From: Candidatus Latescibacterota bacterium
Lineage (GTDB): Bacteria > Latescibacterota > UBA2968 > UBA8231
DNA length: 64,000 nucleotides
Assembly (NCBI GenBank): GCA_965200315.1
Contig: OZ241362.1
Location: 2,347,117 to 2,411,116 of the forward strand
Direction: 5' to 3'
Shown: positions 37,016-56,271 of the stretch, in pieces
Position numbering within the stretch: position 1 is the stretch's first letter
Layout: each line of letters begins with the position of its first letter
Translations under genes and position numbers: made by a program
Notes under the pieces: generated by a model
What the model was told of the DNA's origin: nothing
Seen by the model: only the letters and a program-made list of their open reading frames with translations
The model's database searches: none

Positions 37016-38287
37016 ATGGAACGGCTTTCACTCCTGTCTGAAGACCAAGTTCGCGCTGTCCAGTGCCAATTTGGGACGCCCACTTTTGTCTATAGTCAAA
37101 AGGCGTTGGAATCCCAAGCCCAAAAGGCACTGGCCTTCCCCAATGCACACGGCCTGACGGTTCGCTACGCGGTGAAAGCCTGTCCGGCAGCCGGCGTGAT
37201 CCGCATTCTCAATCGCGCCGGCCTGCACATCGACGCGAGCAGTGGCTACGAAGCGCTGCGGGCCATGCGCGCTGGCGTCCCTGCGGACCAGATTCAGATC
37301 ACGGCCCAACAACTACCCGACAATTTAGCAGATCTAGTGCGCCAAGGTGCCCTCTTCAACGCCTGTTCCCTGCACCAACTCGCAGCCTACGGCCGGCTCT
37401 TTCCGGGCCGCGAAGTTTCCGTACGCATTAACCCAGGCCTAGGTTCGGGACACAGCAACCGCACCAATACGGGCGGCCCTTCGTCGAGCTTCGGCATCTG
37501 GCACGAGCATCTCGACCAAGTGCTCGCAACGGCCGCCAAACACAACCTGCAACTCACTGGCTTGCACAGCCATATCGGCTCGGGCAGCGACCCAGCAGTC
37601 TGGCAGAACTGCGCCCGGCTGACCCTCGGCGTAGCCACCAAACTGCCCGAGGTCCGGCGCGTGAACATGGGTGGCGGTTTCAAAATTGGACGCATGGCCG
37701 ACGAAGTATCGACCGACTTGCACAAGGCCGGTCAACCTGTGGCCGACGAATTCAACCGCTTCGCCTGCGAGCATGGCCGCAAACTGCATCTGGAAATCGA
37801 ACCGGGGACCTTCTTGGTAGGCAACGCCGGTGCCATCGTCTGTAGCGTCGTCGACGTAGTCGATACCGGCCCGCAGGGCTATTGCTTTATCAAGGTCAAT
37901 AGCGGCATGACCGAAGTGTTGCGTCCCAGTCTGTACGGGGCGCAGCACCCCATCGTCGTAGTTGCGGCCACCCCAGAGGAACGCGGCCAAGGCGAGTACC
38001 TAATTGCTGGCCATTGCTGTGAAAGCGGGGATATTCTCACGCCAGCGTCCGGCAACCCCGAAGAACTGGGACCTCGTGCACTCACCGAGCCGCGCATCGG
38101 CGATGCGGTCTTTATCGGCGGCAGCGGAGCCTATTGCGCTGGCATGGCCGCCAAAAACTACAATTCCTTCCCGGAAGCATGCGAAGTACTGCTCGGTACA
38201 GACGGCGAGCTGCATCTGCTGCGCCAGCGACAAACCCTCGACCAAGTCCTAGCCAACGAGTCCCTACCCGCTTTCCTCAGCTCCTAA
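37016..38287 (+). CDS. lysA: diaminopimelate decarboxylase (Orn/DAP/Arg decarboxylase fold type III)
   Basis: PLP-lysine context RYAVKACP, GGGFKIG and HCCESGD. ATG at 37016. Confidence 0.85.
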   Translation: MERLSLLSEDQVRAVQCQFGTPTFVYSQKALESQAQKALAFPNAHGLTVRYAVKACPAAGVIRILNRAGLHIDASSGYEALRAMRAGVPADQIQITAQQLPDNLADLVRQGALFNACSLHQLAAYGRLFPGREVSVRINPGLGSGHSNRTNTGGPSSSFGIWHEHLDQVLATAAKHNLQLTGLHSHIGSGSDPAVWQNCARLTLGVATKLPEVRRVNMGGGFKIGRMADEVSTDLHKAGQPVADEFNRFACEHGRKLHLEIEPGTFLVGNAGAIVCSVVDVVDTGPQGYCFIKVNSGMTEVLRPSLYGAQHPIVVVAATPEERGQGEYLIAGHCCESGDILTPASGNPEELGPRALTEPRIGDAVFIGGSGAYCAGMAAKNYNSFPEACEVLLGTDGELHLLRQRQTLDQVLANESLPAFLSS

Positions 38288-39307
38288 GCCGCGCAGCTTC
38301 GGATCCAGCGCGTCGCGCAACCCGTCGCCTAGCAGGTTGTACAAGGTCACGGTCGCAAAAATGGCCAAGCCCGGCACGACCACCAGCCACCACGCCGCTG
38401 CGTTACTACGCGCCCCGGCCAGCAGGGCACCCCAAGTGATCACTTCTGCTGGTATCCCTACCCCTAAAAAGCTCAATCCAGACTCGGCGAGGATGGCACC
38501 TGCGACCCCAAAGGCCGCCGGGATTAAGATCGGGCCGATGGCGTTAGGCAGGATGTGCCGGAACATGATCCGCCCATTTGAGTATCCGAGGCTGCGTGCG
38601 GCTGCCACGTAATCGTAGCTGCGCACCTGCAAAAACTGCGATCGCGCCAAGCGGGCGATACCGACCCAACTCGTAAGACCGATAATGACCATGACGAAGA
38701 ACAGACTTGGCGGAAAAAACGCCGCGACCGTCAATATCAGAAAGAAGCTAGGAATCGCGGCCCACAACTCGAAAAGACGCGAGAGTGCCAAGTCAACCCA
38801 GCCTCCAAAGTAGCCGGCCAACGCCCCCAAGACCAAGCCAATGGCCAGCGATATCCCCACGGCCACTAGGCCGATGGTCAAAGCGTAGCGCGTACCGTGA
38901 ATCAGTCCCGAGAGCACGTCGCGGCCCAAGCGGTCCGTGCCCAGCCAGTGCTCGGCTCCCGGGGGCTGGTACTTCTCCCGCAAGCGGATCTCGCCCGGGG
39001 CATAAGGCACCGGCGGGAAGATGGCCTCCTCTAACTTGAGCTTTTTGAAGTTGCGGCGGCGCTTTAATTCCGCTGGCCAGTCCATTACCCCTAGATAGAC
39101 TGCGTATTGGCGGAAGGCCGGAAAGTAGATCTCGCCCTTGTATTTCATGTAGTACGGCTTGTCGCCGGCCAGCAAGTCGGCGCTCAAGGCCATAATCCCC
39201 AGCAAGACGATGCCCAAGAGACTGAGCAGAGCGGGTCTGTTTTTCTTTAACTGTCTCCATACGACCCGCCCGTAGGACTGCCCTTGTGCAACGGTCTCCG
39301 CGCTCAT
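38264..39307 (-). CDS. ABC transporter permease, peptide/nickel type (DppC/OppC-like)
   Basis: Six TM helices and the conserved loop YVAAARSLGYSNGRIMFRHILPNAIGPILI. Confidence 0.9.
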   Translation of the reverse strand: MSAETVAQGQSYGRVVWRQLKKNRPALLSLLGIVLLGIMALSADLLAGDKPYYMKYKGEIYFPAFRQYAVYLGVMDWPAELKRRRNFKKLKLEEAIFPPVPYAPGEIRLREKYQPPGAEHWLGTDRLGRDVLSGLIHGTRYALTIGLVAVGISLAIGLVLGALAGYFGGWVDLALSRLFELWAAIPSFFLILTVAAFFPPSLFFVMVIIGLTSWVGIARLARSQFLQVRSYDYVAAARSLGYSNGRIMFRHILPNAIGPILIPAAFGVAGAILAESGLSFLGVGIPAEVITWGALLAGARSNAAAWWLVVVPGLAIFATVTLYNLLGDGLRDALDPKLRGLGAEESG

Positions 39308-40603
39308 CTATACACTCGCGAAGTCGATGCGCGGGTCCACGGCCTTGAGCAGAATATCCGCCACCAAGATCCCCGCCAAGGATAGGGCCGAACCAATGGT
39401 GAAAAGCGCCATAGCCACGGGGTAATCGCGCACGATGACCGACTGGAAAGCCAAAAAGCCCATGCCCGGAATGGTGAAGATCGTCTCGATAAACACCGAA
39501 CCCGCGATCATTCCCGGCAAAAGCCCAGCCATCAGCGTTACAATGGGAATCAGGGAATTGCGCAACACGTGACGCAGCACCACAACGCGGTAGCGCAATC
39601 CTTTGGCTTGGGCGGTGCGCACGTAGTCCAGCCGCAAATTCTCCAGCATGCTAGTGCGCATATAGCGCGAGATGCCAGCAAAGCTGGCGTAGGTCGAAGC
39701 CAATATCGGCAAAACCATGTGGTGAGCGTGGTCGGTTAGCAGTCGCCAGAATCCCCAGTCTTCCCCCGCGTCCAAGGATTGGATACCGGAGGCCGGGAAC
39801 CAGTGGAAGAATTCCTTGTTGGAGAAAAACAAAATCAACAGCATGCCGACCCAAAACGAAGGCATTGACCACAGCATGAAAGTCCCGGTGGTAACTAAGC
39901 GATCTGTAATAGTATTTTGCTTGACCGCGATCACTATGCCCAGCGGCACGCCGACTAGATAGGCAAACACTAGGCTGATGAGGTTGATTTCCAGCGTGAC
40001 GGGCAGCCGGTCAAGGATGTGGTCGATGACCGGTTGCTGATCTTTGAAGGAGCGCCCCAAATTAAGCGTCACCAAACGCCAATCTCCCGTCTGCACCAGC
40101 TCCAAACCAGACCCAGCATACGCATAGTTTTTAGCTGGCGAGAAAAGGCGGCTCTGCCAGAAAGGCGACTCGACTAGCTCGTTGACGCGCTCGGGGCGCA
40201 GGCGGCGAAAGTGCTCCAAGAACCGCGCCTTGCGCTCCTCGCCCTCAAGCGAGACCAACTCGGCCCGCTCCGCGTCCGCTAGCTCGTCGAGCACGGCGTC
40301 GGCCAACAAGGCCCCTCGGTCGAATGCGCCTAGGTCCTCCACCCGCAAGACCAAGTTGGAAAGCCAGTGCAAGTATTGGATGTGTAGCGGTTGGTCCAGC
40401 CCAAGTTGGCGGCGCAAATCCCGGCGCGTCTTCTCCATGTCCGTCTGATGGTCGGTGGAGATCCCCTCGCCACCAGCGGCCCCACCCAAGAACAGATCGA
40501 CTGGGTCGCCGGGCGCCAAGCGCATAATCAGAAAAGTCAGTAGGGTGATGCCGAGGAGGGTTGGGATGGCCAGCAGAATGCGCTGGATGGTGTACTGCAG
40601 CAT
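39308..40603 (-). CDS. ABC transporter permease, peptide/nickel type (DppB/OppB-like) with enlarged first periplasmic loop
   Basis: MLQYTIQRILLAIPTLLGITLLTFLIMRLAPGDP and YVRTAQAKGLRYRVVVLRHVLRNSLIPIVT. It carries an insertion of about 100 aa after TM1. Confidence 0.9.
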   Translation of the reverse strand: MLQYTIQRILLAIPTLLGITLLTFLIMRLAPGDPVDLFLGGAAGGEGISTDHQTDMEKTRRDLRRQLGLDQPLHIQYLHWLSNLVLRVEDLGAFDRGALLADAVLDELADAERAELVSLEGEERKARFLEHFRRLRPERVNELVESPFWQSRLFSPAKNYAYAGSGLELVQTGDWRLVTLNLGRSFKDQQPVIDHILDRLPVTLEINLISLVFAYLVGVPLGIVIAVKQNTITDRLVTTGTFMLWSMPSFWVGMLLILFFSNKEFFHWFPASGIQSLDAGEDWGFWRLLTDHAHHMVLPILASTYASFAGISRYMRTSMLENLRLDYVRTAQAKGLRYRVVVLRHVLRNSLIPIVTLMAGLLPGMIAGSVFIETIFTIPGMGFLAFQSVIVRDYPVAMALFTIGSALSLAGILVADILLKAVDPRIDFASV

Positions 40604-40621
40604 GGTGGGAGCGCGGGCGCT

Positions 40622-41632
40622 TTACTCCTCTAGTTCTGCGGCCCGCGCAAACGCCGCTTCGCTTTCCTCAATCAATTCTTTATGGGCGAAAATCGTCCCC
40701 AAGTGCATCCACACCAAAGCATTGTCCGGCGTTTGTTCGGAGAGCTGCTTCAAAAGCGGCAACGCGCTATCCATGTCCTCTGTGGCCAAGTGGACCATGG
40801 CGAGATTGTAGCGTGCGTCCCCGTCGTCGGGTTTGAGCTGGAGGACCTGCTCATAGGCCCGCTTAGCCGCGGTGTATTTTTCTTGCTGCCAGTAGATATT
40901 GCCCAAGTTGAAGTGGGGCCTGAAATCATCGGGGTTTAGTTCAATGACCTTGCGGTAATTGACCTCGGCACGCTCGTAGTCTTGGGCTTGAGCTTGGGCG
41001 ATGGCGAGATTGGTCAGGGCATTGAGGTTTGCGGGATTGATCTTGACCACCTGCGACAAGGTGCCGATGGCCTCATCGAGCTGGCCATTTTCCAAGTAGA
41101 GCGACCCTAGGCTGAAAAAGGTGCTCTCGTCTTCTGGATCCGCGGACGCGACCTTCTGGTAGGTGGCAATGGCCGCGTCCGTGCTGTCGATCTGGTAATA
41201 GACGTACGCGAGGTTGCGCCAAGCATCGAGCGCACTTTCGTCGATGAGGGTAGCGTTGTGGAACGAGTGCCGCGCCAGGTCGTAGTTCGGGGTCTCTCCT
41301 TGGGCGTGGACGACGCCGGCATTGTACTCACGCGTCCAAAAGTGGCGGCGCGTTCGTTCGGCCTCGCTTTGAAATTTGGGGGCGCGCTCAGCGTGCGCTA
41401 GGTGCTCGGCCATTTCGCCATAGCGGCCCTCTTCGCCTAAGAGCTTGCCCATGAGTAGGTGAGCCTCGCTATTTTCTGGCTCGGCTTGCAAGACTAGGGC
41501 GAGTTGTTCTTTGGCCTCTTGCGGCTGCTCCTGTTGGATATAGAGCTTGGCCGCGGTCAGGGTCGAACTCTGACACCCCAATCCGGCGACGATGACGAAC
41601 ACCGCCAGCCAGCACACAAATCTCATTGGCAA
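40622..41632 (-). CDS. TPR-repeat lipoprotein
   Basis: Lipobox VAGLGC, followed by successive 34-residue TPR-like repeats (A..Y..AL...P....A..NLG). Confidence 0.8.
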   Translation of the reverse strand: MPMRFVCWLAVFVIVAGLGCQSSTLTAAKLYIQQEQPQEAKEQLALVLQAEPENSEAHLLMGKLLGEEGRYGEMAEHLAHAERAPKFQSEAERTRRHFWTREYNAGVVHAQGETPNYDLARHSFHNATLIDESALDAWRNLAYVYYQIDSTDAAIATYQKVASADPEDESTFFSLGSLYLENGQLDEAIGTLSQVVKINPANLNALTNLAIAQAQAQDYERAEVNYRKVIELNPDDFRPHFNLGNIYWQQEKYTAAKRAYEQVLQLKPDDGDARYNLAMVHLATEDMDSALPLLKQLSEQTPDNALVWMHLGTIFAHKELIEESEAAFARAAELEE

Positions 41633-41640
41633 TCCCCTTC

Positions 41641-41678
41641 GAGAAAAACTGCGCGGCGCACAGGACGTGCGCCGCGCA
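41641..41678 (-). terminator. rho-independent terminator after the PorV-like gene
   Basis: Perfect 12-bp stem tgcgcggcgcac / gtgcgccgcgca with a 5-nt loop. On the minus strand it is followed by GTTTTTCTC. Confidence 0.78.
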
Positions 41679-41688
41679 ACGGTCGAAT

Positions 41689-42723
41689 TTAGAACCCGAA
41701 CTGAAAGGTAAAGGTATTGAGCGCGTCGAAATACTCAACCGTCGTGTAGGCGTAATCAACGCGCAAATCTTTGATCGTCCCGGCATCCAGATTCAGACCA
41801 AAGCCGAAGCTAGTGCCGTAGATGTAGTCGTCGGTCGAGTTGGGCGCGTAGTCGAAGCCAGCGCGCAGGGCGAAGAACTCGTTCAACACATATTCGGCAC
41901 CCAATCGGTACTGGTCGTAGGCGAAATTGTTGTGCCGGAAGACCGAGGACAGATTGACCGCGCCCAGACCAGTGGGCTCGTAACGGTAGCTCAGACCGAG
42001 TTCAAATACCGAGGGCAGGTCGGCGGAGCTAGCCTGCACATTGTAATCGGAAGGTCCGCGGCGCAACCCGTCGACTTGGCCGCGGCGCAACAGGCCGGAA
42101 CCTCCAAACTGCATCCGCGTACCGATGTGCTTGAGCACCACCCCCAAGTCCAAGCCGGCAATTCCGCCCAGATTGGCGTATTGCAGACCGGCGCTAAACG
42201 AGGCTGCGGTAGCCTCGACGCGCAGGATGCGGTTGACGATATAATGGCTGGTAAACCCGACAGCGATGCGATCAGTCAGTTCCCTCGCAAAGGTCAGGCC
42301 GACCGTGAAGAAGGTCGGCGAAAAGTCCGCGCCGGTGCCGTCTGGATTGGCCTCGGTCGTCACTGGGATTGGGCCAAAATCCAGCGCCTTGATGTTGAGG
42401 GCCAGCGCACCGAGGCTCTTGAAATTGGCACCGGTGGCCAGATAGTTGATGCGGGTATCCGCCAGATAGGACATCGTCGAGAACATGATGCCCGCGTTGG
42501 ATTCGGACTTGGACAAGCCTGCCGGGTTCCAGTGCAGAGCCTCTAAACCAGAACTAGTGGCGATTGAGGCCCCGCCCAAGGCCATGTCGCGCGCGCCAAC
42601 CGGAATCAGCAGTTCCGGGGCCGCGGCCGTACCGGCGCGATCATAGCCGTCGGCAAAGGCCGTAGCCGAGGCGAAAACCAGCGCCAGCAGGATCGTCGAG
42701 ATGCGAAAGCTGTGTCGAAGCAT
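41689..42723 (-). CDS. PorV/PorQ-like outer-membrane beta-barrel protein, paralog 2
   Basis: ATG at 42723 with AGGAGG 7 nt upstream. Signal peptide MLRHSFRISTILLALVFASATAFA. Motif LLIPVGARDMALGGASIATSSGLEALHWNPAGLS. C-terminal FTFQFGF. Confidence 0.75.
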   Translation of the reverse strand: MLRHSFRISTILLALVFASATAFADGYDRAGTAAAPELLIPVGARDMALGGASIATSSGLEALHWNPAGLSKSESNAGIMFSTMSYLADTRINYLATGANFKSLGALALNIKALDFGPIPVTTEANPDGTGADFSPTFFTVGLTFARELTDRIAVGFTSHYIVNRILRVEATAASFSAGLQYANLGGIAGLDLGVVLKHIGTRMQFGGSGLLRRGQVDGLRRGPSDYNVQASSADLPSVFELGLSYRYEPTGLGAVNLSSVFRHNNFAYDQYRLGAEYVLNEFFALRAGFDYAPNSTDDYIYGTSFGFGLNLDAGTIKDLRVDYAYTTVEYFDALNTFTFQFGF

Positions 42724-42762
42724 GGAATGGCCTCCTATTTCTCTCTTTGATATCCCGTGCAC

Positions 42763-45700
42763 CTAGAAGTTCTCCAAGAACTGCTGCTCTTGGATGACGG
42801 CCAGCTTGAGGATTCGACTCATGCCGTGATCCGGCAGTTCGATATGGGCGATGTACATGCCGCTGGCCACCGGCAGTGCATTGTGGTTTTGCAGATCCCA
42901 GCGCGTGAACTGCGATGGGTCGTCCTTCTCAATCGTGCGCACCAGCGTACCGCTCATGTCGAAGATGCGGATATTCGCCTTGGACGGCAGGTGGCTGAAG
43001 GTCACGAAGTGGCTGTAACGGCTGGTTTCCGCCATGTTGACGCCGAGGTAGGGATTGGGGAAGACGTTGATCTTCTCGATGTCCTCCTTGAGGAATTCGG
43101 CGTTCTCATCTCGCCCTGGGACGAGAAAGGAGAATACATCGTCAGCGCTGTTGACCCTGTAAGGGATCAACCTCAGAATCTGACCGTCTTCGAGCATATC
43201 CATCTCGTGGTCACCACTTCTTAGCGTACCCCATAGTGCCGCATGGATGTCGAAGGTAACTGCATCGGCTAAGATGCTTTTGCCTTCGCCGTATTGATCC
43301 AGTGGCGCGTCGCTATAGTCGCTGTCAAAAATAAACAAGTACTCGCGACCACCGAGCCCGCGATCCGGGTCTTCCGAGGCCAAATCCCAAGTGCCGTTCT
43401 CCGAAGTGGAACCCGAGTTCTCGACAAAGCCGATATTGACCTGCCGCGGTGGGTCGCTGTCCACTTCCCAAGCGGTAAAAGGCACATCGGCAAAATCTTG
43501 AAAACCGTAATTGGGATCGCCGCCGCGCAGATAGCGGTAGCCTTTCTGCGTATTGGTGCGACTAAAACGAATCTCGATGGCCTTCAGGTCGGCACCGCCA
43601 AGCGAAGAGCCGAAGAAATTAGGACCGACGTCAGCACCGCCGCCAAGGGCACTGCCACCCCAGTTTATACCGGTTAGCCAGCGCTCCGATCCCTCCCACT
43701 CCCAACCACTAAGCGCCAGCGGTGGGCCGAGGACCATCAGTTCAAAGCCGTGGTCCGGGAGGTAGATGGCCGCTCGCTCGTCGCCCGGACCGATCTCGAA
43801 CTGGTCGGCAAGGAGAATCTTGCCACCATCGGTTTCATCTATCAAGCTCCACACGGTGTGTCCCTCTTCATCCGCGCCGAAGCGGACCTGATAGTTGTGG
43901 CCCGTGGTGAATGTAGGGTTGACTACCACGACCTCAACCTCTCCCTCACTGATACCGGAAGTGTGCTCGGGGGTTATCGCGGTGTCAGGCTTGCTCAGAT
44001 AGCGGGTACCTGGCGGCGGCTCCTGCGGTACGCAGATCAGGTTCTGCGGCGTACTCTCCAGCGTAGTGTTAGCGGCTTCTTCGGCGGTGGCGCGGTTGTA
44101 GGCCGTCACTGCAAAGTAGTACCGCTGGCCGTTGACCAGCGGGCCGCTACGGATGTGGTCCTGAGTAATCGTGGTATTGCGCCTGAGCCCGAAGTCGATG
44201 CCGATCTGTAGGGGCACATCGAGCACCACGCCCGATTCCTCGTCGAGGGCAATGCCGAGGATTGTAGTCACACCATTCTCGATGTCAAAAGTCGCTACCC
44301 TGACGCCCTGAGAAAGCGTGGCTTCGGCCGAGGGCAACTGATAGAGGTTGTAGCCTTCAAATTCAAAGCCGGGCGAACCCTCGCCTTCGGTGGCCTGAAT
44401 CGACTCGTCGTCCCAACCCCAATCCAAGAAGATCGCCTGATCGAGCTCGGCTACGCGGACATTGGGCTGGGTCGGCGGCTTGGGCACCTCGAAGAAGCTG
44501 TTGTAGGCGTCCTGTACAAACTGGTCGTTGAATTTCAGCTTGGAGACACTACGCAGGCGATCGGTAGAAATGCCGCCGAGCAGCGCGACCACCACTTCCT
44601 GAGTATCGCCTAAGGCCATCTCAAACGGACCGGTGTTGAGCACGATGCGCCGGTCGCCGGCTGGCAGCGGAATTCCGTCGTTCCAGCCTTGGGCCGTAGT
44701 CGGATCGCCGTCGAGGGTGAAAAAGGTGCCATCGCCAGTCAGGGGATTGGTGTACGGAACGGGGTTGCCAATGTCGGGCTGGGGCTGAAAGCCGCGCAGC
44801 AAATTGTACCACTCCTCGGTACCGATGTATTCGCCGAGTTCCGGGTCGTCAATAGCCGAGCCGGCGGCAAAGTACACAAAGGAAGTCATTGGCAAATTAC
44901 GATAGCCGAGTCTCCGGCCAAAGTTGAAAATGGCTTCCGAACTCTCATCCAAGACCAAGTTGCCGTCTTCGTCCAACAGCGGGTCGCCGTTTTCGTCTTT
45001 CTGGAATACCGGAACGGCCGGCCCTTGGAGGAAGTCGTAGCCCACGGCTGGCGGTGCCAGTCCAAAGGGTACGTAGTGCGAGTCGTCGTTGATTGAGTTG
45101 TACACGTAGCCGAGACTTAAATCGATATCGGCCCCGGCGAAGTCGTCGCCGTAGTTGCCCAAATCTGGGTCGGACCACTGGGCAAAGTACATATCTTCAA
45201 TGCGGGCTGTATCCGGGGTGGCACTGGTGCCTTTGTAAATGACCGTGAACTTCTTGAAAATCACATCGCCCAGCGCGTCGGTGCGGGCGTACCCCCAAAG
45301 CAGCACCTGGACTTCAAGGCCAATGGGTTTGGAGCCGTACAGGGATTGCGCCGCCCCCACATCGAGGTCGTTAATCACAAACCAAGCCACTTGGTCGGCC
45401 CCGGCCACGCCCGGCTCGTCAATGTCTGGATTATACTCGCCGTCCCCGTCATTGTCGTAATAGGGTGCCCCTTTCTGATGGGGCCATTCGCGCCAATCCT
45501 GCTCGTACTGGGCGCGCAAGGCTTCCTCGTCGCTGTCGGTGACCGCACTCAGCCCAATTCCCAAGCTCTCGGAGGCGTCGAGACGCAAGTCCGCCGTCTG
45601 ATAATCGCGGCGAATGCGGTAGATGCGGACGCTTGGATCGGCGGGATCTTCGGCCACGCCCTTGCTGATAATGCGGCCGGGCACGGTGCCTATTGCGTAG

Positions 45701-46020
45701 GTCTGGCCGCCGACGCGCAGTTCCTGTGGATCGCCGTCCTTGACGATGCCACCCCAGATCAGGCCATCCCTATAGATGACTTGGTCAGTCGAGCGCGGAA
45801 AGGTTACCCCGGAGCCGGAGGTGAGTGGGTTGTACCCGGACGAGCCGTTGTGCTCAAACCACATGGCCATGTTGTTGATGTTGAGCAAGGCGCGCCCGCC
45901 GAAGTCGTTTTCCTGCGTGGTTTTGGCAGCGCGATACGCGCTCGGTCCGCGGCTTTGGACCGGGCCGGCTACGCCGAGCAAAAGCCCAGCGGTCGCCAAA
46001 TAGGTGACAAACTTTTTCAT
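42763..46020 (-). CDS. large secreted protein with T9SS type-A C-terminal sorting domain (1085 aa)
   Basis: Signal peptide MKKFVTYLATAGLLLGVAGPVQS. The C-terminal part, roughly 85 aa (VFPNPYLG ... IRIFDMSGTLVRTI ... WDLQNHNALPVASGMYIAHIEL ... KLAVIQ), fits the Por secretion tail pattern. The body has no recognised catalytic domain. Confidence 0.8.
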   Translation of the reverse strand: MKKFVTYLATAGLLLGVAGPVQSRGPSAYRAAKTTQENDFGGRALLNINNMAMWFEHNGSSGYNPLTSGSGVTFPRSTDQVIYRDGLIWGGIVKDGDPQELRVGGQTYAIGTVPGRIISKGVAEDPADPSVRIYRIRRDYQTADLRLDASESLGIGLSAVTDSDEEALRAQYEQDWREWPHQKGAPYYDNDGDGEYNPDIDEPGVAGADQVAWFVINDLDVGAAQSLYGSKPIGLEVQVLLWGYARTDALGDVIFKKFTVIYKGTSATPDTARIEDMYFAQWSDPDLGNYGDDFAGADIDLSLGYVYNSINDDSHYVPFGLAPPAVGYDFLQGPAVPVFQKDENGDPLLDEDGNLVLDESSEAIFNFGRRLGYRNLPMTSFVYFAAGSAIDDPELGEYIGTEEWYNLLRGFQPQPDIGNPVPYTNPLTGDGTFFTLDGDPTTAQGWNDGIPLPAGDRRIVLNTGPFEMALGDTQEVVVALLGGISTDRLRSVSKLKFNDQFVQDAYNSFFEVPKPPTQPNVRVAELDQAIFLDWGWDDESIQATEGEGSPGFEFEGYNLYQLPSAEATLSQGVRVATFDIENGVTTILGIALDEESGVVLDVPLQIGIDFGLRRNTTITQDHIRSGPLVNGQRYYFAVTAYNRATAEEAANTTLESTPQNLICVPQEPPPGTRYLSKPDTAITPEHTSGISEGEVEVVVVNPTFTTGHNYQVRFGADEEGHTVWSLIDETDGGKILLADQFEIGPGDERAAIYLPDHGFELMVLGPPLALSGWEWEGSERWLTGINWGGSALGGGADVGPNFFGSSLGGADLKAIEIRFSRTNTQKGYRYLRGGDPNYGFQDFADVPFTAWEVDSDPPRQVNIGFVENSGSTSENGTWDLASEDPDRGLGGREYLFIFDSDYSDAPLDQYGEGKSILADAVTFDIHAALWGTLRSGDHEMDMLEDGQILRLIPYRVNSADDVFSFLVPGRDENAEFLKEDIEKINVFPNPYLGVNMAETSRYSHFVTFSHLPSKANIRIFDMSGTLVRTIEKDDPSQFTRWDLQNHNALPVASGMYIAHIELPDHGMSRILKLAVIQEQQFLENF

Positions 46021-46037
46021 AACGTTTTCCTCCCTTT

Positions 46038-49000
46038 TTACAAGCCCAGTTTGATCCCTAAACGGATCTGGCGCGGCGAGCCAAACAGGTCTCCACCTTC
46101 GGTGTTCCAGTAGTGCTGCCGATTGGCCAAATTGATGGCCTCGTATAGCTGCCGGTACGTATCACTGCCACTGGCTGCAATAATTTGGCTGCTCAGATCG
46201 GGGTTGGTGAGGAAACCGTCGTCCTCGGCACTGCCGGTGCGGCCGTACACGTTAATCACGTTTTTGCGGTTGAACAGATTATAGACAGAGAGATAAAGCT
46301 GTGCATCGGCACCGAACAGACCAAAGCCTTTATCCACTTTCAGATCAACCTCAAACGTCCAAGGCGTCGAAGAGGCGTTGATGCTTTCTAAAGGCTTGCG
46401 CGAGCGCGGATCGTCGTTGGCGAGGATGCCACCCTCTTCGGGGCCGCGCTGGCCAATGGACCCGCTCGACAGGGTGAAATTGTGGCCGCTGCTAAAGTAA
46501 AACAGCAGGTTGGCCCCCAGATTCTCTAGGATCGGCCCACCGTCGTTGTCGGCAAAGCGATAGTCAACAAAGATGTTGCCTCGATGCGCCTCATTAAAAT
46601 CCAACGGCGAAATGATGGTGGGCAAGTTGGTGTTGTTCTCAACCCCAGAAACGGCCGAATTGGTCGATGAGCCGGTGCCGCGAGCATCCGACAGGGTATA
46701 GTTAAGCTCAGTGCGCAACCGATTGATACGACGCAACTTGAAGACGAACTCCAAACCCTTGGTCGTAGCAAAGTCGCCGTTTTGCAGGAAATTGTACGCG
46801 CTGGCGTTCTTCGCGCTCGCCGAAATGTTCTGGCGCTGAATCTGCAACTGCCCTTTTACGTCGCGGTAGAAGCCAGTGATGTCGAAGGAAGCCATGTCGG
46901 TAAATTGACGTTCAAAGCCGATCTCGTATTGGGTCGTGCGGATCGGCTCAATGTCGAAGGCCGTGGGCACGGAGATGAAATTTTGGCCGCCTAGCTCCAA
47001 GGCCAGCCGTGCCCCGCCGGCGTACATGGAGCGCATGGCTGGCATTTGCGAGAAGCGGCCGTACTGCACGTGGAAGACCGTCCGATCCGACACTGGAAAC
47101 GAGAACCCGAGTCGCGGGCTGAGTTCGCTAAACGTGCGGGTCTTGGTCATTGACTCGAGATTGATCGTATAGAGCGAATCGGTGCGCACCGGGGCTTCGG
47201 GATTCTTGAAGCGCCAGCTATCGACATCGAAGTAATCCCAGCGCAGGCCGGCGTTCACGATGAGATCATTGTATTCGATCTTGTCCTGTACATAGGCCGA
47301 GGCCATCACCGGATGGCGCGGTGCCTCCAGCCCTTCGCCTTGGTCCTTGCGGCCAAAAGCGTCGAAGCCGAAGTAATCGGAGCGGCTGCTGTTGCGGATC
47401 AAGGTCTCAAAATCCGCAAGGCTGCCCTGCCCGTCGGGCAAGGTTTCGGCGGTGGCGATCAATTCATCTAGCACTTGGTCGGCACTTATGCCGCCGGCGT
47501 AATACCGATCGTAAACCGCGTCTAAGTCGGGGTATGTGGTGGAGATGGCTCTGCGGAGGGCACTGGTCCTGATGTCAAAGCGGCGCGAAGTCCAGTACTG
47601 ATAGTTGAAGCCGACCTTGAACTGATGGAGGTCAGTTTGGTGCATCAGGCTGCCACCCCCCCCGTAGTAGCTCTCCTCGGCTTTGCCATAGGAGGAGGCC
47701 AAATCGCCCGTCCTAGCAAAGGGGAAGCCGTTCAGATCGTAATCCCGCAGCGAGATGCCCTGACTGGAGTACGGCGTGAAATCCGGGTTGGCTTGGGCGA
47801 CAGCGAGGCTGTCGTTGTAGAGCATGAACGCATCGCCGAAAACCGGATCAAAGTACTCGCGCGCTTGGTTGTAGAGGCTGGCGTTGAATTCGTAAAGGGT
47901 ATTGGCATTGAGGAGGTGAGTGCCGCTGACATGGAGCAGGCCCGTAGCCCGATCGGCCTCGGGCAGCCGCTCGGTATTAAAGGCACTGTAAACAGGCAGC
48001 CCATTAAATTCCTGGTCTTCCCCTGAGTACAGGCCCGTGACCCGCACCTGAAAGGGCTGCAAGTCAAAGAGCAGGGTGCCGTTGAACGTCATCGCTTGCA
48101 AACCTCGATGATCGATGTTGCCCGGACTGATGGCTAGATCAACCGTATCTGGCACCGCGTTGTCCTCGGCGTCCTTGCGCCAATGCACCCGGCCGCCGCG
48201 GTCACCCGAATCGACTAAGTCGGCAAACTCAAAGCCCTCCCAGAAGACGGGTGGGGAGTCGCGAACCCAGCGCTGCCCGGCCAGAAAGGCTCGCACCTTC
48301 TTGCTGCCGACGACCGGGCCGCCAGCCGTGAACACTTGGGTGGAATACCCATAAGAATACGTGCCGAAGCGCTTTTCGTAGGGGGAGGTGAAGTTGTCCG
48401 TCTCGCTCAGCAGCCCGAATTCCCAATTGGAGGGGCCGGTGCGTAACTCCTGCAAGATGATGCCGGCGTTGGCCCCACCGTACTCGGCGTTGAAGCCCCC
48501 GGCCTGTAGCTGGACCTCCGCTAGGGCTTCATCTATCAGGTTGACTGCTACTCCGCCAGTGACCGGATTGCGGACGGTGGCCCCATCGACGTAGTAGCCG
48601 ATCTCGTCCGAGCGCGAGCCGCGCACATGCAACGTGCCCTCGTCATATACCACGCCCGGCTGTAGGTTTATGACACTCGCGACGCCTCTGAACGGCAGAA
48701 GCTCTATGTCCTCGGCATCAACGATGCGCACCGCATTGGTCGCGGTTTTGTCGATGATCGGCCGCTCGGCGCGAATTACCACCTCATCGACTTGGATATC
48801 CGAAGAAGTCAGGTCAATGTCGAGATTCGTAGTCAGGTCGGCGGAGACCCGCACATCTTCAACGATATAATCCGCGTAGCCGACATAGGTGGCCTTGAGG
48901 GTGTAGGTACCCGCCGGCACGTTGAGGATAAAGAAGCGGCCCTTTTCGTCCGCTGTGGCCCCTAACTTGGTATCCATCACCACGATATTGGCATGGGGCA

Positions 49001-49136
49001 GCCCATCCCCGGTGGCGGCCTCCTTGACGACACCAGCTATTTTGCCACCCGTACTGGCCTCGGCCGGAGCCAAGCTCAGCGCGAGCAAAACGCCCAATGC
49101 GGTCAAGACGCGAAAAACGTCAGCAAATTTGGTCAT
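46038..49136 (-). CDS. TonB-dependent receptor with N-terminal carboxypeptidase-regulatory-like domain
   Basis: Signal peptide, then GKIAGVVKEAATGDGLPHANIVVMD...GTYTLKATYVGY (CarboxypepD_reg-like). Plug region VVIRAERPIIDKTATNAVRIVDAEDIELLP. Long beta-barrel. AAGGAGG sits before the ATG. Confidence 0.9.
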   Translation of the reverse strand: MTKFADVFRVLTALGVLLALSLAPAEASTGGKIAGVVKEAATGDGLPHANIVVMDTKLGATADEKGRFFILNVPAGTYTLKATYVGYADYIVEDVRVSADLTTNLDIDLTSSDIQVDEVVIRAERPIIDKTATNAVRIVDAEDIELLPFRGVASVINLQPGVVYDEGTLHVRGSRSDEIGYYVDGATVRNPVTGGVAVNLIDEALAEVQLQAGGFNAEYGGANAGIILQELRTGPSNWEFGLLSETDNFTSPYEKRFGTYSYGYSTQVFTAGGPVVGSKKVRAFLAGQRWVRDSPPVFWEGFEFADLVDSGDRGGRVHWRKDAEDNAVPDTVDLAISPGNIDHRGLQAMTFNGTLLFDLQPFQVRVTGLYSGEDQEFNGLPVYSAFNTERLPEADRATGLLHVSGTHLLNANTLYEFNASLYNQAREYFDPVFGDAFMLYNDSLAVAQANPDFTPYSSQGISLRDYDLNGFPFARTGDLASSYGKAEESYYGGGGSLMHQTDLHQFKVGFNYQYWTSRRFDIRTSALRRAISTTYPDLDAVYDRYYAGGISADQVLDELIATAETLPDGQGSLADFETLIRNSSRSDYFGFDAFGRKDQGEGLEAPRHPVMASAYVQDKIEYNDLIVNAGLRWDYFDVDSWRFKNPEAPVRTDSLYTINLESMTKTRTFSELSPRLGFSFPVSDRTVFHVQYGRFSQMPAMRSMYAGGARLALELGGQNFISVPTAFDIEPIRTTQYEIGFERQFTDMASFDITGFYRDVKGQLQIQRQNISASAKNASAYNFLQNGDFATTKGLEFVFKLRRINRLRTELNYTLSDARGTGSSTNSAVSGVENNTNLPTIISPLDFNEAHRGNIFVDYRFADNDGGPILENLGANLLFYFSSGHNFTLSSGSIGQRGPEEGGILANDDPRSRKPLESINASSTPWTFEVDLKVDKGFGLFGADAQLYLSVYNLFNRKNVINVYGRTGSAEDDGFLTNPDLSSQIIAASGSDTYRQLYEAINLANRQHYWNTEGGDLFGSPRQIRLGIKLGL

Positions 49137-49169
49137 ATATCCCTCCTTTGTAAGGTATTCAATACCCCT

Positions 49170-49883
49170 TCACATCAGGTGCAACCAGTCGTCCAAGAGA
49201 AAGGTTACACGCCCGATCAACAGCGAGACCCTCGCCATAATGGTGTAACCAAACGAAGCCCCAAACGAGATCATCAAAAACCATATCCCCACCTTGGAGA
49301 TATGACCCGCCGTGCCGGTGTGCTCGACGGAAAAAAAGAAATAAACCAACACCCCGATGACCCCCACTAGGACGATCAGCAAATCGAGCACTTCCAAGCT
49401 CCAAGTCAGTTGATGTAATGCAGGCTCTATTTGGGCTAAAATAAAGGAAGAGATATAGCGAGGAATCGTCAGGCCGGCCCCGAGCCCGACGAAGAATGCA
49501 AAAGCATAGCGGCTGAGCCACCCAAAGCGCAGCGAAAAGCGCGTCAACATCAAAAGCCCGAGCACCATCGGAGCCAACAGCCACCAATTGGGCGTCTCCC
49601 CTTCTTCCGTGTTGGTCCATTCGGCGATGAGCTCGCCGTAGATCGTCGGATACCAGTACTGGCCAAACATGTAAGCCGCTGCCACACCGACGAAAACGTG
49701 CTCGGCAAACTTGAAAAGCGGGTTGTCCTTGTAGAGAAAGCTATAGAGTGCCAAGGTCATGCCCGCCGCGACGATGATGCCCAAACCCGTCCAGTCCGCC
49801 GCCAAGATTCCGCTAGCCATCAAGCCGATATTGACTGCGGCAAACAGCAGGATCAAGCCCAAAAAGACATACGTATTGCGCAT
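49170..49883 (-). CDS. polytopic membrane protein, unknown family (237 aa)
   Basis: About 7 hydrophobic helices. 8 nt after the upstream gene and 33 nt before the TBDR gene. Confidence 0.75.
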   Translation of the reverse strand: MRNTYVFLGLILLFAAVNIGLMASGILAADWTGLGIIVAAGMTLALYSFLYKDNPLFKFAEHVFVGVAAAYMFGQYWYPTIYGELIAEWTNTEEGETPNWWLLAPMVLGLLMLTRFSLRFGWLSRYAFAFFVGLGAGLTIPRYISSFILAQIEPALHQLTWSLEVLDLLIVLVGVIGVLVYFFFSVEHTGTAGHISKVGIWFLMISFGASFGYTIMARVSLLIGRVTFLLDDWLHLM

Positions 49884-49891
49884 GGCGGAGA

Positions 49892-50722
49892 TCAGTTCCC
49901 CTGCTCGGATGAAGTTCGCCGAGCGACGAAGTACGCAATATTGCCGATAATTACAAAGAGGGCGATGACCAAATGAGTCATCGACTGGGCGCTCATACCC
50001 ATGCTGGCACTGCCGCGATGGTCAATCAGGGTCTCGTATTCGGCGGCACCGGCTAGGCCGCCGAGCAGGCCACCGAGCTGTCCCGAGTCGAGGAAAGGAT
50101 AGAGATCGGGAGCCATCACCGCGGTGCAACCAGCGACAAAGGTAAAGCCGTACTTCTCCTGCCCATAGGGGATCCACCAAAACTCAATCGAATCCCCGGC
50201 AGCCAAGTCTAAGACGAGGTCAAAATCGCGCAGTGAGCGCAAACCGCGCGTCAAATCCAAATCGCCGGTATCCACGCCCCATTGGTCCTGCGGGAAGGCA
50301 CTGCGGAAGTCTTGCCCCATATTGAGGATGACACTGAAAGTGCCCGGCTTGTAGCCCATAAAGGCGTAATCCACCCCGTACTCCAAATCGAATTCAGCCG
50401 CCATTTCCTCCAGCACCTGTTGGGCCAGCCCCGGTGCCTCGGGCCATAGACAAATGGCCACCACCTTGAGATCGCGGCGGAAAGCGTGGCGCAACATGGC
50501 ACGCGACATCGGCAGCATTTCAGGTTGCGTGCTGGCACCATAGGAGAAGGAGACCAGCACAATGTCCCCCGCGTCGAGTTTCTCCAACTGGTTGTACGCA
50601 GCTTTTACTTCGTTCGTCGGCGTGATCGGCAGGGAAATTCCGGCCATCAACGGCCACGCCACGCTAATAAATACTAGGGCGAAAATGATGCGGCGGTCGA
50701 TAGCGAGTAGTTTGTGCATCAC
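49892..50722 (-). CDS. bitopic membrane protein, unknown family (276 aa)
   Basis: N-terminal and C-terminal TM helices flank a soluble domain of about 200 aa. The start (GTG 50722 or ATG 50719) overlaps the upstream stop. Confidence 0.75.
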   Translation of the reverse strand: MMHKLLAIDRRIIFALVFISVAWPLMAGISLPITPTNEVKAAYNQLEKLDAGDIVLVSFSYGASTQPEMLPMSRAMLRHAFRRDLKVVAICLWPEAPGLAQQVLEEMAAEFDLEYGVDYAFMGYKPGTFSVILNMGQDFRSAFPQDQWGVDTGDLDLTRGLRSLRDFDLVLDLAAGDSIEFWWIPYGQEKYGFTFVAGCTAVMAPDLYPFLDSGQLGGLLGGLAGAAEYETLIDHRGSASMGMSAQSMTHLVIALFVIIGNIAYFVARRTSSEQGN

Positions 50723-51375
50723 TCAGATCCTCCACCCAAATACGAGCGCTCAATCCCAAAAATGATCCGCAACGAGGTAGCAATAGCACCCAACGACACG
50801 CCGAGCAAGATGCCGCGCTTAGCCGCCAAGTTGGGCACATTCAACAGCCAGTCGGTCGCCAGTGGAAAAAAATCGGAAAGCTCTCTACCAATGGGCACGC
50901 GGCCCAGCATGACGATGACCGCCGCGATCAACAGCACCGCCGCTTCGGGCGTGCGAGCGCGGAAGGTTCGGTACGCCGCCGAGGCGATGAAAAAGGCTAA
51001 AATCGAAAACATGGTAGAGGCGCAAGGCACGTGAATATTGTCGAAGAGCCACTTATAACCCCCGGCCTCAGCCTGAGCGGCGAAGGGGCCTAAACCGTCG
51101 TTGTACACGACGAAGATCATCATCACCGCAAAGCTCAAAATAGCGATCAAGCTATAGGCCCAGCCGGCGACGCGCTGGCGGATCCGCTGCCAGTGCAGGT
51201 TGAGCAGGCTGTATAGTCCGAGCAAATAGGAAAACGCGAAGACTATGCGCACCCATAGCGCCATCTCTCGCTCCAAATTCTGCGCGTGGCCGTGGGGTAT
51301 GTAGTAGATGACAATGCCGAGCATACCGAAGGCAAAGGCAATGACCAGCGGTAGCGTTCGACTAAAAAAAATCAT
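50719..51375 (-). CDS. polytopic membrane protein, unknown family (218 aa)
   Basis: About 6 hydrophobic helices. ATG at 51375 with AGGAGG 6 nt upstream, embedded in the end of the upstream gene. Confidence 0.75.
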   Translation of the reverse strand: MIFFSRTLPLVIAFAFGMLGIVIYYIPHGHAQNLEREMALWVRIVFAFSYLLGLYSLLNLHWQRIRQRVAGWAYSLIAILSFAVMMIFVVYNDGLGPFAAQAEAGGYKWLFDNIHVPCASTMFSILAFFIASAAYRTFRARTPEAAVLLIAAVIVMLGRVPIGRELSDFFPLATDWLLNVPNLAAKRGILLGVSLGAIATSLRIIFGIERSYLGGGSE

Positions 51376-51384
51376 CGCGCCCTC

Positions 51385-52629
51385 CTAGGGGCTAAAAAAG
51401 TGCGTCAACTGCGACCATCCCAAGAAGGTCTCCAGCAGCGTGCCCAGCACCAAAGCGGCCAGCAGAATGGCTTTGCCCCCGTCTTGGCCTTTAAGGCTAC
51501 CGAGCATTCGCGGTTCGCCCGACAGATAGGCGCTGGCTGCATAGAGCTCTTCGCCGAGCAGGGTGTAGTCGCATGTAGTGACGAAAAAGGGAAGTTGGGT
51601 AAAGGCGTCCGTGCCGGCGATCTGGATTGCCCCGGTCGTGGAGCCGGTTTCGGCCAACAGCAGCGACTCGGCGTAGAAATATCCCATCATAATATGAGCC
51701 GCCGGGCGGTCGCGGACCATGATGCCCTCGACTGCTGCCGCATAGCTGAACTGCTCGGTGCTGGCGACGAAAACGTGGTCGGGGTTAAACGCGTCGGGCC
51801 GCCCCGCCTCCACATAAGAGGCTTTCACCGTCTCCTGACTCACCGACATAACTACCGGGTCAGGAGCCACCACCCGCAGCGCGGTGTCGTATTCGGCCGT
51901 ACGCCGCGCAAGCCGCCCCAAGATATTGACCGCGGCAATGGTTGGTATCTGGCTCATGTCGCGCAAGCCGTGGATGAAAAGCACCGGCTTGCCCATCTCG
52001 GTCGCCCGCCCCAACGCCTCGTCCAGTGCCTCTAGCCCGGCGATGCGACGGATCTTGAGCTCGCGCCGCCGCGCAATGCCAATGTAGCCCATGATAAGCC
52101 CTGAAAAAACGAGGCACAACACCAAGTTATTGACCTTGGCGCGGTTAAAAAAATTGCCTTTGGACTCGGCGTTGACGATCACTTTGCCGCGGATCGCGCC
52201 CCCGGCCGACCGCACATCGATGTGAAAGTAATAAGTCTTACCATCTTCTAGCGGCGTCTTGCCACCCGCGCCGGCGAATTCCTCGACATTGACATAGTGA
52301 TGATTCTCCAGATCGGCCCCACGACCAAAGAGCCCCGGTGCCTCGGACATCAAATTCCCCGTTGCCACAACCTCGGCCACGACGCGAAAAGGCCCGCTGG
52401 GCGAATCGGCGATGGCGACCTGATACATCGCATTTTCGCTGATCCGACGATCTCGCGGCCAAGTCAGCGTAATGCTGCCCCCGTCGTCGTTGGGCGTGTC
52501 GAAGGCTTGGACCTCGATCGGCGGTTCAGGATGTGCCAGCAACGTGCTGAGTCCTCGTTCCGCATTCTCCGCCGCGCTCGCCAACGGCCAAGCCAAGACC
52601 AACACAGACAGCCAGTTTTTTGCTCTCAT
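51385..52629 (-). CDS. membrane protein: signal peptide + FN3-like ectodomain + TM + cytoplasmic domain + C-terminal TM (414 aa)
   Basis: MRAKNWLSVLVLAWPLASA, DDGGSITLTWP (FN3-like), TM LVLCLVFSGLIMGYIGIA followed by RRRELKIRR, and the terminal helix AILLAALVLGTLLETFLGW. Confidence 0.75.
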   Translation of the reverse strand: MRAKNWLSVLVLAWPLASAAENAERGLSTLLAHPEPPIEVQAFDTPNDDGGSITLTWPRDRRISENAMYQVAIADSPSGPFRVVAEVVATGNLMSEAPGLFGRGADLENHHYVNVEEFAGAGGKTPLEDGKTYYFHIDVRSAGGAIRGKVIVNAESKGNFFNRAKVNNLVLCLVFSGLIMGYIGIARRRELKIRRIAGLEALDEALGRATEMGKPVLFIHGLRDMSQIPTIAAVNILGRLARRTAEYDTALRVVAPDPVVMSVSQETVKASYVEAGRPDAFNPDHVFVASTEQFSYAAAVEGIMVRDRPAAHIMMGYFYAESLLLAETGSTTGAIQIAGTDAFTQLPFFVTTCDYTLLGEELYAASAYLSGEPRMLGSLKGQDGGKAILLAALVLGTLLETFLGWSQLTHFFSP

Positions 52630-52632
52630 GCC

Positions 52633-53748: not shown

Positions 53749-53751
53749 GAG

Positions 53752-55533: not shown

Positions 55534-55861
55534 GCTTTTGGCTTTCGCGCTGGGCAATGGCCTCCGCGAGTAGGTCTATAGATTGACGGCGCTCCAACAT
55601 GCGCGTAAATCGCTCGTACTCATCTCGCGAAAAAACCAGCGTGGCAAATGGAGCCAAAAAGGTCAGGGCTTGGCTGCCCAAAAAATTGAGGGGGCGGCAA
55701 GCCTCCAATGCCATAGACGCAGCCGCTCCCATGCGGCGACTCACTATAAACTCGGCCAGCCGCTCGGCCAGCGTACGCTCTTCCTCAGACCAACCTACCT
55801 CTGGATCTTCGAGGGCAAAAGCGTGCCGCCACCGCGCTTTTAAACTATCGACTTGAAACAT
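55526..55861 (-). CDS. small hypothetical protein (111 aa)
   Basis: ATG at 55861. One hydrophobic segment (LNFLGSQALTFLAPFATLVF). It overlaps both neighbours (17 nt and 8 nt). Confidence 0.55.
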   Translation of the reverse strand: MFQVDSLKARWRHAFALEDPEVGWSEEERTLAERLAEFIVSRRMGAAASMALEACRPLNFLGSQALTFLAPFATLVFSRDEYERFTRMLERRQSIDLLAEAIAQRESQKHG

Positions 55862-56261: not shown

Positions 56262-56271
56262 AGCCGCGTCC

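Follow-up and report, generated by a model that had tools for sequence, protein, structure and literature searches.

Can a TonB-dependent transporter be served by a surface partner that is not a lipoprotein? TonB-dependent uptake with the help of a surface partner, as in SusCD and RagAB, is the defining nutrient strategy of the Bacteroidota and has been thought to depend on surface lipoproteins. The question is raised by three consecutive genes in a window of 64,000 nucleotides (contig OZ241362.1, positions 2,347,117 to 2,411,116; assembly GCA_965200315.1) from a Candidatus Latescibacterota bacterium, the host, whose genome is a single contig of 5.36 Mb. The genes encode a TonB-dependent transporter (TBDT; here the receptor), a large surface protein predicted to be sorted via a type IX secretion system (T9SS; here the partner) and an outer-membrane barrel of the PorV/PorQ family, and are referred to as the triad. 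The first-pass annotation, made from the letters of the window, had read them as one unit in which a PorV paralog may be dedicated to a single T9SS cargo, and had likened the layout to a SusC/SusD pair with its SusD lipoprotein replaced.

The analyses described below lead, with moderate confidence, to the identification of the triad as a SusD-independent capture-and-import module, a function proposed from sequence comparison and predicted structure. In the literature searched no paper describing the arrangement was found, only gene drawings that are not discussed.

The partner protein and its barrel

The partner starts with a Sec signal peptide that has no lipobox cysteine, and it ends in a type-A-like T9SS C-terminal domain (CTD). 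The motifs quoted earlier for a type-A CTD were present and the model TIGR04183 was passed marginally (23.7 bits by hmmscan and 28.4 bits in the genome scan; cut-off 23), whereas the Pfam model Por_Secre_tail was not passed (PF18962; 16.2 bits, cut-off 27), so that the type-A assignment stood in part. The CTD region of the PorZ model scored 35.8 bits on the partner, and the modelled CTD region is a beta-sandwich. Neither the partner nor the barrel matched a type-B CTD or the PorP/SprF model TIGR03519 in NCBIfam at E ≤ 0.1. The only CTD in the host genome with detectable similarity to that of the partner belongs to a second triad, described below.

Beyond the last CTD strand lies a short C-terminal tail which, with the residues preceding it, follows the consensus [IV]QEQQ[FY]L[ED]N[FY]. 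The tail was kept in all phyla sampled (72 orthologues listed) with a final F or Y in all but one, and E1078, Q1079, Q1080 and L1082 were invariant in the orthologue alignment. Across phyla, identity was 59% in the CTD and 62% in the tail, compared with about 52% (46-58%) in the N-terminal domain (N-domain) and 27-32% in the C-terminal half of the body. Conservation in the partner thus peaks in the CTD and tail, which suggests that the CTD is retained and not cleaved, as in PorZ-PorQ. In a discarded signal such a peak would be unexpected, which argues against release. In PorZ and PorU the CTD stays in place and binds PorQ and PorV, respectively, and a review has put forward the hypothesis that such CTDs are protected by 'cognate PorV-like barrels' (PMC10202324).

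A different fate would follow if the barrel were a dedicated shuttle only. It would then ferry the partner from SprA, PorU would cleave the CTD, and the partner would become linked to lipopolysaccharide or be released with no stable complex; the receptor would be a neighbour taking up what the free partner produces or binds. Structural work has shown that T9SS substrates exit the translocon bound to a cognate carrier (PMC10994853), and cleavage is the canonical fate of cargo with a type-A CTD (PMC10202324, PMC10994853). The host has PorU, and the partner CTD passes the type-A model. The conservation of CTD and tail is nevertheless unexpected for a disposable signal, the partner CTD most resembles the retained CTD of PorZ, and the general PorV already serves about 60 further CTD matches, so that a second pure shuttle would be redundant. 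Both the shuttle-only role of the barrel and the corresponding role of the receptor as a mere neighbour are considered unlikely, at perhaps one chance in several.

The barrel was assigned to the PorV/PorQ family by NF033709 (149.9 bits, cut-off 90; residues 45-357 on model positions 1-326), with 147.9 bits in the genome scan. It is PorQ-sized, and among solved structures F. johnsoniae PorV comes closest (6h3i_F, E = 3.9e-10). The equivalog models were failed: PorV NF033710 reached 62.3 bits (cut-off 250) and PorQ NF033711 78.3 bits (cut-off 220), in each case over the N-terminal half only, and the PorV2 equivalog model also failed. Two other relationships were rejected. A FadL/Toluene_X match (PF03349) gave 20.9 bits over 29 residues with a gathering threshold of 29.7, and BamG, a barrel associated with the beta-barrel assembly machinery of Bacteroidota, is FadL-like and belongs to the FadL family, not to the PorV family. 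The earlier description as a PorV-type barrel was thus upheld and a grouping with FadL refuted.

In a maximum-likelihood tree the host barrel and 72 related triad barrels formed one clade (Shimodaira-Hasegawa-like approximate likelihood-ratio support 100, stem 2.86), and all nine other PorV-family paralogs of the host, including the PorV linked to porU, fell outside it. The separation of these 73 barrels from the paralogs bears out the proposal of a dedicated PorV paralog, and the tree identifies the barrel as a private lineage inherited with the partner.

The host has a T9SS of its own. In a check that covered SprA, PorU, PorV and CTD matches, SprA was found at 622 bits and PorU at 615 bits, along with 68 CTD matches to TIGR04183. 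The porU gene lies at 1.5996-1.6033 Mb, and directly behind it, at 1.598 Mb, lies the best-scoring PorV-family barrel (237 bits with the family model, 157 bits with the PorV model). Since this separate, porU-adjacent PorV exists, the triad barrel is a paralog and not the housekeeping PorV. In the same locus (1592577-1603339) two more genes follow the porU-porV pair. One encodes a 907-aa homologue of a 'T9SS-dependent M6-like inactivated metalloprotease' (287 bits, short of its cut-off), the other a protein of 1028 aa that has TolB-like propeller repeats. Two further PorV-family paralogs, at 386517-387521 and 1503312-1504247, are near-identical (end branches 0.03-0.04, identical C-termini), which points to recent duplication; neither adjoins a same-strand CTD gene.

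The body of the partner matched no catalytic family, and no glycoside hydrolase (GH) family, in Pfam or NCBIfam, and sequence and profile searches of the PDB with the partner and with its N-domain returned nothing significant. A full-length AlphaFold model (pLDDT 69.9) was a chain of beta-sandwiches with few helices. Its top Foldseek match was PorZ (5m11), the rest being generic multi-immunoglobulin/fibronectin type III (Ig/FN3) chains at a TM of about 0.1. Because the full-length model was uninformative apart from the match to PorZ, the N-domain, which is the best-conserved stretch of the body, was modelled separately from 50 diverse orthologues (AlphaFold2; pLDDT 94.1, pTM 0.93). It was predicted to form a super-sandwich, behind which lie Ig/FN3-like spacers and a variable distal region. 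A Foldseek search of the PDB (prob 1.0, best E = 6.8e-7, TMq 0.30-0.37, about 7% identity) retrieved non-catalytic N-domains, namely those of dextran dextrinase, GH94 phosphorylases, GH15 glucodextranase and GH116. The fold is a hint of carbohydrate binding and nothing more; in the mechanism proposed below, the N-domain is probably glycan- or oligomer-binding.

Several identities for the partner were rejected. As an enzyme of the GH15, GH94, GH116 or GH65 kind it would lack the (alpha/alpha)6 catalytic part, which is absent from the model, and as any other catalytic enzyme it would lack a catalytic domain and an invariant histidine or cysteine in the body. A SusD/RagB protein (PF07980) was rejected because there was no match, the partner is predicted to be almost all-beta, and it has no lipobox cysteine. 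The first-pass annotation had seen no recognisable catalytic domain in the body and had proposed a fold search; that search agreed with it, returning an N-domain of the carbohydrate-enzyme type with no catalytic part attached. A free secreted enzyme is also disfavoured by a CTD that is more conserved than the body.

The N-domain belongs to a large family: in a library of 1.84 billion representatives, 6932 clusters at 50% identity matched it at E ≤ 1e-3, and 2291 did so at E ≤ 1e-30. Three longer partner variants of 1408-1420 aa (P0110, P0111 and P0113) carry extra modules of the dockerin type (PF00404) and of the PKD type (PF18911 and PF22352).

The receptor and the recurrence of the triad

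The receptor had been described as a TBDT with a carboxypeptidase-regulatory-like N-domain and a plug, and both parts were confirmed by Pfam (CarbopepD_reg_2 66 bits, CarboxypepD_reg 58 bits, Plug 32 bits with a cut-off of 23.9). A profile of 16 orthologues matched, in the PDB, isolated N-terminal domains (from a TonB-dependent receptor, from RagA and from a SusC homologue), as well as the barrel of the haem receptor PhuR (E = 1e-8) and the plugs of PqqU and YncD. The plug motifs were kept in 63 receptor orthologues, and DEVVIRA (residues 117-123) is a candidate TonB box by its motif position. The conservation of plug motifs and of the TonB-box-like segment in the 63 orthologues indicates selection for gated transport. 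Among about ten receptor-like open reading frames (ORFs) in the host genome the best paralog scored 175 bits, compared with 600-740 bits for receptors from the triads of other phyla; by these scores the receptor, like the barrel, is a private lineage inherited with the partner.

A scan of one genome per species yielded 269 loci with a relative of the partner, the best 78 of which were analysed. The contiguous order receptor, partner, barrel was found in 71 of these 78 as called. The seven exceptions comprised five contig ends, one split ORF and one real exception (L061), itself a second copy in a genome that also carries a full triad; as far as the contigs extend, the order thus holds in 77 of the 78. 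The survey of relatives proposed at the outset therefore returned a syntenic triad. The loci are labelled Latescibacterota, KSB1, Ignavibacteriota, Calditrichota and Bacteroidota (Chitinophagales, Cytophagia). Metagenome-assembled genomes (MAGs) labelled Gemmatimonadota, Planctomycetota and Deferribacterota (L026, L028, L029, L032, L036, L038, L039, L044 and others) also carry triads. In the barrel tree these oddly labelled triads, among them one labelled 'Gemmatimonas phototrophica', nest within the groups of Latescibacterota or KSB1, and the records are probably mislabelled or mis-binned.

Outside the triad little was shared. A tetratricopeptide repeat (TPR) gene follows the barrel in 33 of the 78 loci and OppBC permease genes follow the TPR gene in 29; a cluster with an actin-fold ATPase lies directly upstream in 24. 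These 24 all belong to the Latescibacterota-type group, some of them having been submitted under the label Gemmatimonadota. Other neighbour families recur in at most 7 of 33 divergent loci, and all are unrelated genes. The neighbours outside Latescibacterota are housekeeping genes or a mixed assortment (rpoA, serA/serC-like, SDR, PIG-L, GWxTD and DUF4397 proteins) and offer no clue to the substrate. Since only the triad is conserved across loci, it is the unit, and the rest is lineage-specific context.

Variations on the layout were also seen. In two loci (L035, 234-14572; L050, 200-14511) the receptor-partner pair occurs twice in tandem and one barrel comes after both, a layout in which one barrel may serve two partners. 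At L076, L089, L091 and L093 a second receptor-partner pair lies a few kb away.

CTD genes with adjoining barrels are not confined to the triad. Four of the 12 PorV-family matches in the host genome lie less than 250 nt downstream of a same-strand TIGR04183 match, with about 0.02 expected by chance. One such arrangement is the second triad, in which the barrel start overlaps the end of the CTD gene and a gene for an Nramp metal transporter follows directly. Its 746-aa CTD protein had no family match, and its receptor and CTD are the closest relatives of the studied receptor and CTD in the genome, which suggests that an entire triad was duplicated and its partner body exchanged. Beyond the four matches, a fifth barrel lies behind a 565-aa BNR-repeat protein with a FlgD_ig/CTD-like end (3147670-3151145), in a tandem of two PorV-family barrels (342 aa and 285 aa); the host's counterpart of PorZ-PorQ could be encoded here. 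A Pfam scan of the other CTD-plus-barrel pairs added little. SusD_RagB had no match in the host genome, the B. thetaiotaomicron control being positive.

Two published gene maps have this gene order. In the alginate locus of Rhodothermus marinus, which holds characterised alginate lyases, tonB is followed by hypA, annotated with a T9SS type A sorting domain, and then by hypB, annotated as PorV/PorQ family; the authors drew the genes as hypothetical and left them undiscussed (PMC9530828). In hmu-like loci of some Porphyromonas species, 'T9SS' and 'porV/Q' genes appear on the gene map without comment (PMC12106395).

These observations bear on whether the triad transports anything at all. The partner could instead be a structural coat or adhesin that is anchored by the barrel, with the receptor-like barrel acting as a second anchor or assembly platform. 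The partner is single-copy in the host, near-universal in the lineage and strongly conserved, its Ig/FN3-like spacers and variable distal region suit such a role, and no metabolic genes are linked. A purely structural triad would not, on the other hand, account for the plug motifs and TonB-box-like segment kept in the 63 orthologues, for the paralogous triad that adjoins an Nramp importer, or for the same-layout triad inside an alginate utilisation locus, and such a role is judged improbable. The analogy to SusC/SusD drawn earlier is consistent with the SusC/RagA-type N-domain of the receptor, the super-sandwich partner, the lack of SusD, the Nramp-linked triad and the alginate-locus triad.

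Gene setting and proposed mechanism

The features of the locus are given in Table 1. The intergenic distances of 17 nt (receptor-partner) and 39 nt (partner-barrel) and the strong Shine-Dalgarno sequences (AAGGAGG, GGGAGG and AGGAGG, in gene order, 6-8 nt ahead of each ATG) had been reported correctly in every sequence detail. An alternative GTG start for the barrel at 42762 was rejected; it has no Shine-Dalgarno sequence and would overlap the partner stop.

Table 1. Features of the triad and its surroundings. Positions refer to the window except in the last row.
Feature	Position	Strand	Basis or remark
TonB-dependent transporter, 1032 aa (gene 1, receptor)	46038-49136	minus	ORF
Receptor parts: signal peptide; SusC/RagA-type CarboxypepD_reg domain, residues 33-121; plug, residues 131-225; divergent barrel of about 800 aa			
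T9SS-sorted surface protein, 1085 aa (gene 2, partner or cargo)	42763-46020	minus	Translation
Partner N-terminal super-sandwich (predicted), residues 39-520	44461-45906	minus	AlphaFold2 and Foldseek
Partner type-A-like T9SS CTD, PorZ-like subclass, residues 986-1077	42790-43065	minus	TIGR04183, PorZ model
Partner C-terminal tail EQQFLENF, 8 residues, beyond last CTD strand	42766-42789	minus	Orthologue alignment
PorV/PorQ-family outer-membrane barrel, 344 aa from ATG (gene 3)	41689-42723	minus	ORF
Intrinsic terminator, 15-bp stem (10 G-C pairs) and T-run	41648-41680	minus	Begins 9 nt past barrel stop
Upstream co-directional genes: SBP_bac_5, GlmL/MutL-like actin-fold ATPase, lipoyl-like adaptor, DUF6754, small membrane proteins	49170-58104	minus	Pfam
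Family-5 solute-binding protein	56272-58104	minus	Pfam
TPR protein, lipoprotein-like N-terminus MRFVCWLAVFVIVAGLGC	40622-41626	minus	Pfam TPR families
OppB- and OppC-type ABC permeases	38264-40603	minus	Pfam BPD_transp_1, OppC_N
Second triad: receptor 1130 aa, CTD protein 746 aa, PorQ-like barrel 360 aa	1917032-1925522 (host contig)		

The terminator behind the barrel is by far the strongest terminator-like site within 38000-57900. The triad is the last part of a longer co-directional string that runs from about 58104 to this terminator and is not its own operon in the host genome. Past the terminator, the ATG of the TPR gene is preceded by GAAGGGG. The OppB/OppC permeases lie 16 kb from the matching family-5 solute-binding protein, on the other side of the triad, and no ATP-binding cassette (ABC) ATPase lies nearby.

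The co-directional string admits a reading in which the triad forms the outer-membrane part of the actin-fold-ATPase machine encoded upstream; the receptor-like barrel would then serve export or assembly, in the way that Oar serves PopC in Myxococcus. All genes point the same way, lie very close together and have a terminator in common. In the 24 loci noted above the two clusters adjoin, and they were still near one another after rearrangement in L041 and L024. A requirement for a TBDT in protein secretion is documented as well (PMC6434023). Against this, the ATPase cluster is absent within 10 kb of the triad at every locus labelled Bacteroidota, Ignavibacteriota or Calditrichota and also at many Latescibacterota loci, and the receptor's plug and N-terminal domain belong to the import-type SusC/RagA kind. 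Such a function for the triad would be surprising.

Evidence on expression came from sponge metatranscriptomes. Three runs contained 96-100% of the sampled words from the locus, and contigs of 9-13 kb from sponge metatranscriptome runs cover all three triad genes. These contigs carry no strand, end or reliable depth information and may include contaminating DNA; they are consistent with transcription of the triad. Those of runs X2 and X5 continue past the terminator into the TPR and permease genes, reflecting either read-through or DNA within the RNA libraries. The host sequence is also contained in sponge-metagenome runs, and its nearest public relatives are MAGs labelled Candidatus Latescibacterota.

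For the triad as a capture-and-import module the following sequence of events is proposed. Sec would take the partner across the inner membrane. It would pass the outer membrane by way of the T9SS translocon SprA, where the private PorQ-like barrel, and not the general PorV, would take over its CTD and QEQQFLENF tail. The CTD would stay uncleaved, and the barrel, still bound to it, would anchor the partner in the membrane in the manner of PorQ with PorZ and of PorV with PorU. Thus anchored, the partner would hold its N-terminal super-sandwich at or over the co-encoded transporter, filling the role that the SusD lipoprotein or surface glycan-binding proteins fill for SusC, and the transporter would import the captured substrate with TonB energy. 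In the Latescibacterota lineage the steps that follow may fall to the family-5 binding protein and to the OppBC permeases; peptides or oligosaccharides would fit these flanking genes. Retention of the CTD, its binding by the barrel, contact with the receptor, the direction of import and the substrate are all inferred.

Several observations weigh against this scheme. On the side of the receptor, the Pfam model of the TBDT barrel had no match, and the SusC/RagA model TIGR04056 gave 53.2 bits with a cut-off of 368, over the N-terminal domain only. On the side of the partner, the CTD passes the type-A model marginally and stays under the Pfam cut-off, the N-domain fold match is only partial given its low TMq and identity, and super-sandwiches are known also from non-carbohydrate proteins such as amine oxidase. 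The single-copy, near-universal and housekeeping-like distribution of the partner would also fit a structural role. As to the surroundings, no carbohydrate-active enzyme (CAZyme), peptidase or regulator was linked to the triad in the 78 loci, the upstream ATPase cluster is co-directional with the triad although it looks unrelated, and the contigs from the RNA runs, which may contain DNA, cross the terminator.

A broader reading, held more tentatively and at somewhat less than an even chance, is that the triad is one orthologue family of a general and undescribed third design of TonB-dependent uptake in the FCB superphylum. In this design a T9SS-delivered partner that is no lipoprotein would be locked permanently onto its own PorQ-like barrel next to the transporter, by way of an uncleaved PorZ-type CTD and its conserved tail; bodies and nutrients would vary, and phyla without SusD, such as Latescibacterota, would have in it their main device for high-affinity capture. 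Candidate bodies for this design are the studied partner, the Nramp-linked protein, the protein of the Rhodothermus alginate locus and that of the Porphyromonas hmu-like loci.

If the proposal is true, two signature machines of the Fibrobacteres-Chlorobi-Bacteroidetes (FCB) group that have so far been studied apart would be linked, and the 'retained CTD' principle of PorZ-PorQ would reach ordinary surface proteins beyond the secretion apparatus. The N-domain family is unannotated and spans five or more lineages of phylum rank, among which are abundant uncultured groups and a sponge symbiont, so that a function for the N-domain would annotate thousands of 'hypothetical' genes. The idea is directly testable, since Rhodothermus marinus is a cultured and genetically tractable carrier of a triad of the same layout.

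Comparison with known systems

The closest systems by anchoring are the PorZ-PorQ and PorU-PorV pairs of Porphyromonas gingivalis, in which a T9SS-exported protein that retains its CTD is held by a barrel of the PorV/PorQ family (PMC10202324). The triad barrel is of this family and PorQ-sized, and the partner CTD is closest to that of PorZ. The triad differs in that its barrel fails both equivalog models and forms a clade of its own, its partner has no PorZ or PorU body, a TonB-dependent transporter is genetically attached, and the CTD carries an extra conserved tail. The P. gingivalis pairs, moreover, serve secretion itself and not uptake.

By uptake, the triad resembles SusC/SusD and RagA/RagB, the 'utilisomes', in that a transporter of the CarboxypepD_reg type is encoded directly before a surface partner with a binding fold in an FCB host. 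Here, however, the partner is all-beta, 1085 aa long and not a lipoprotein; it would be delivered by the T9SS and a third protein would anchor it. The receptor reaches only 53 bits with the SusC/RagA model (368 required).

SprB-SprF and PG1035-PorP share with the triad a T9SS substrate that is encoded beside its own carrier or anchor barrel (PMC10994853, PMC9143113). In the triad the CTD is type-A-like and not type-B, the barrel is of the PorV/PorQ and not the PorP/SprF kind, and the SprB-SprF and PG1035-PorP systems include no TonB-dependent transporter. The tonB-hypA-hypB genes of Rhodothermus marinus match in gene order and annotation; hypA (2181 nt) is shorter than the partner gene, and the studied triad has no linked CAZymes. 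Oar of Myxococcus xanthus, which is required for PopC secretion, is a large CarboxypepD_reg TBDT functionally tied to a secreted protein (PMC6434023). The Oar system belongs to another phylum and has no T9SS, CTD or PorV-like barrel.

The equivalog and subfamily models failed and SusD is absent, which places the triad outside both SusC/SusD and PorZ-PorQ. The best-supported comparison is that it would work like SusC/SusD for uptake and like PorZ-PorQ for anchoring, while being a member of neither.

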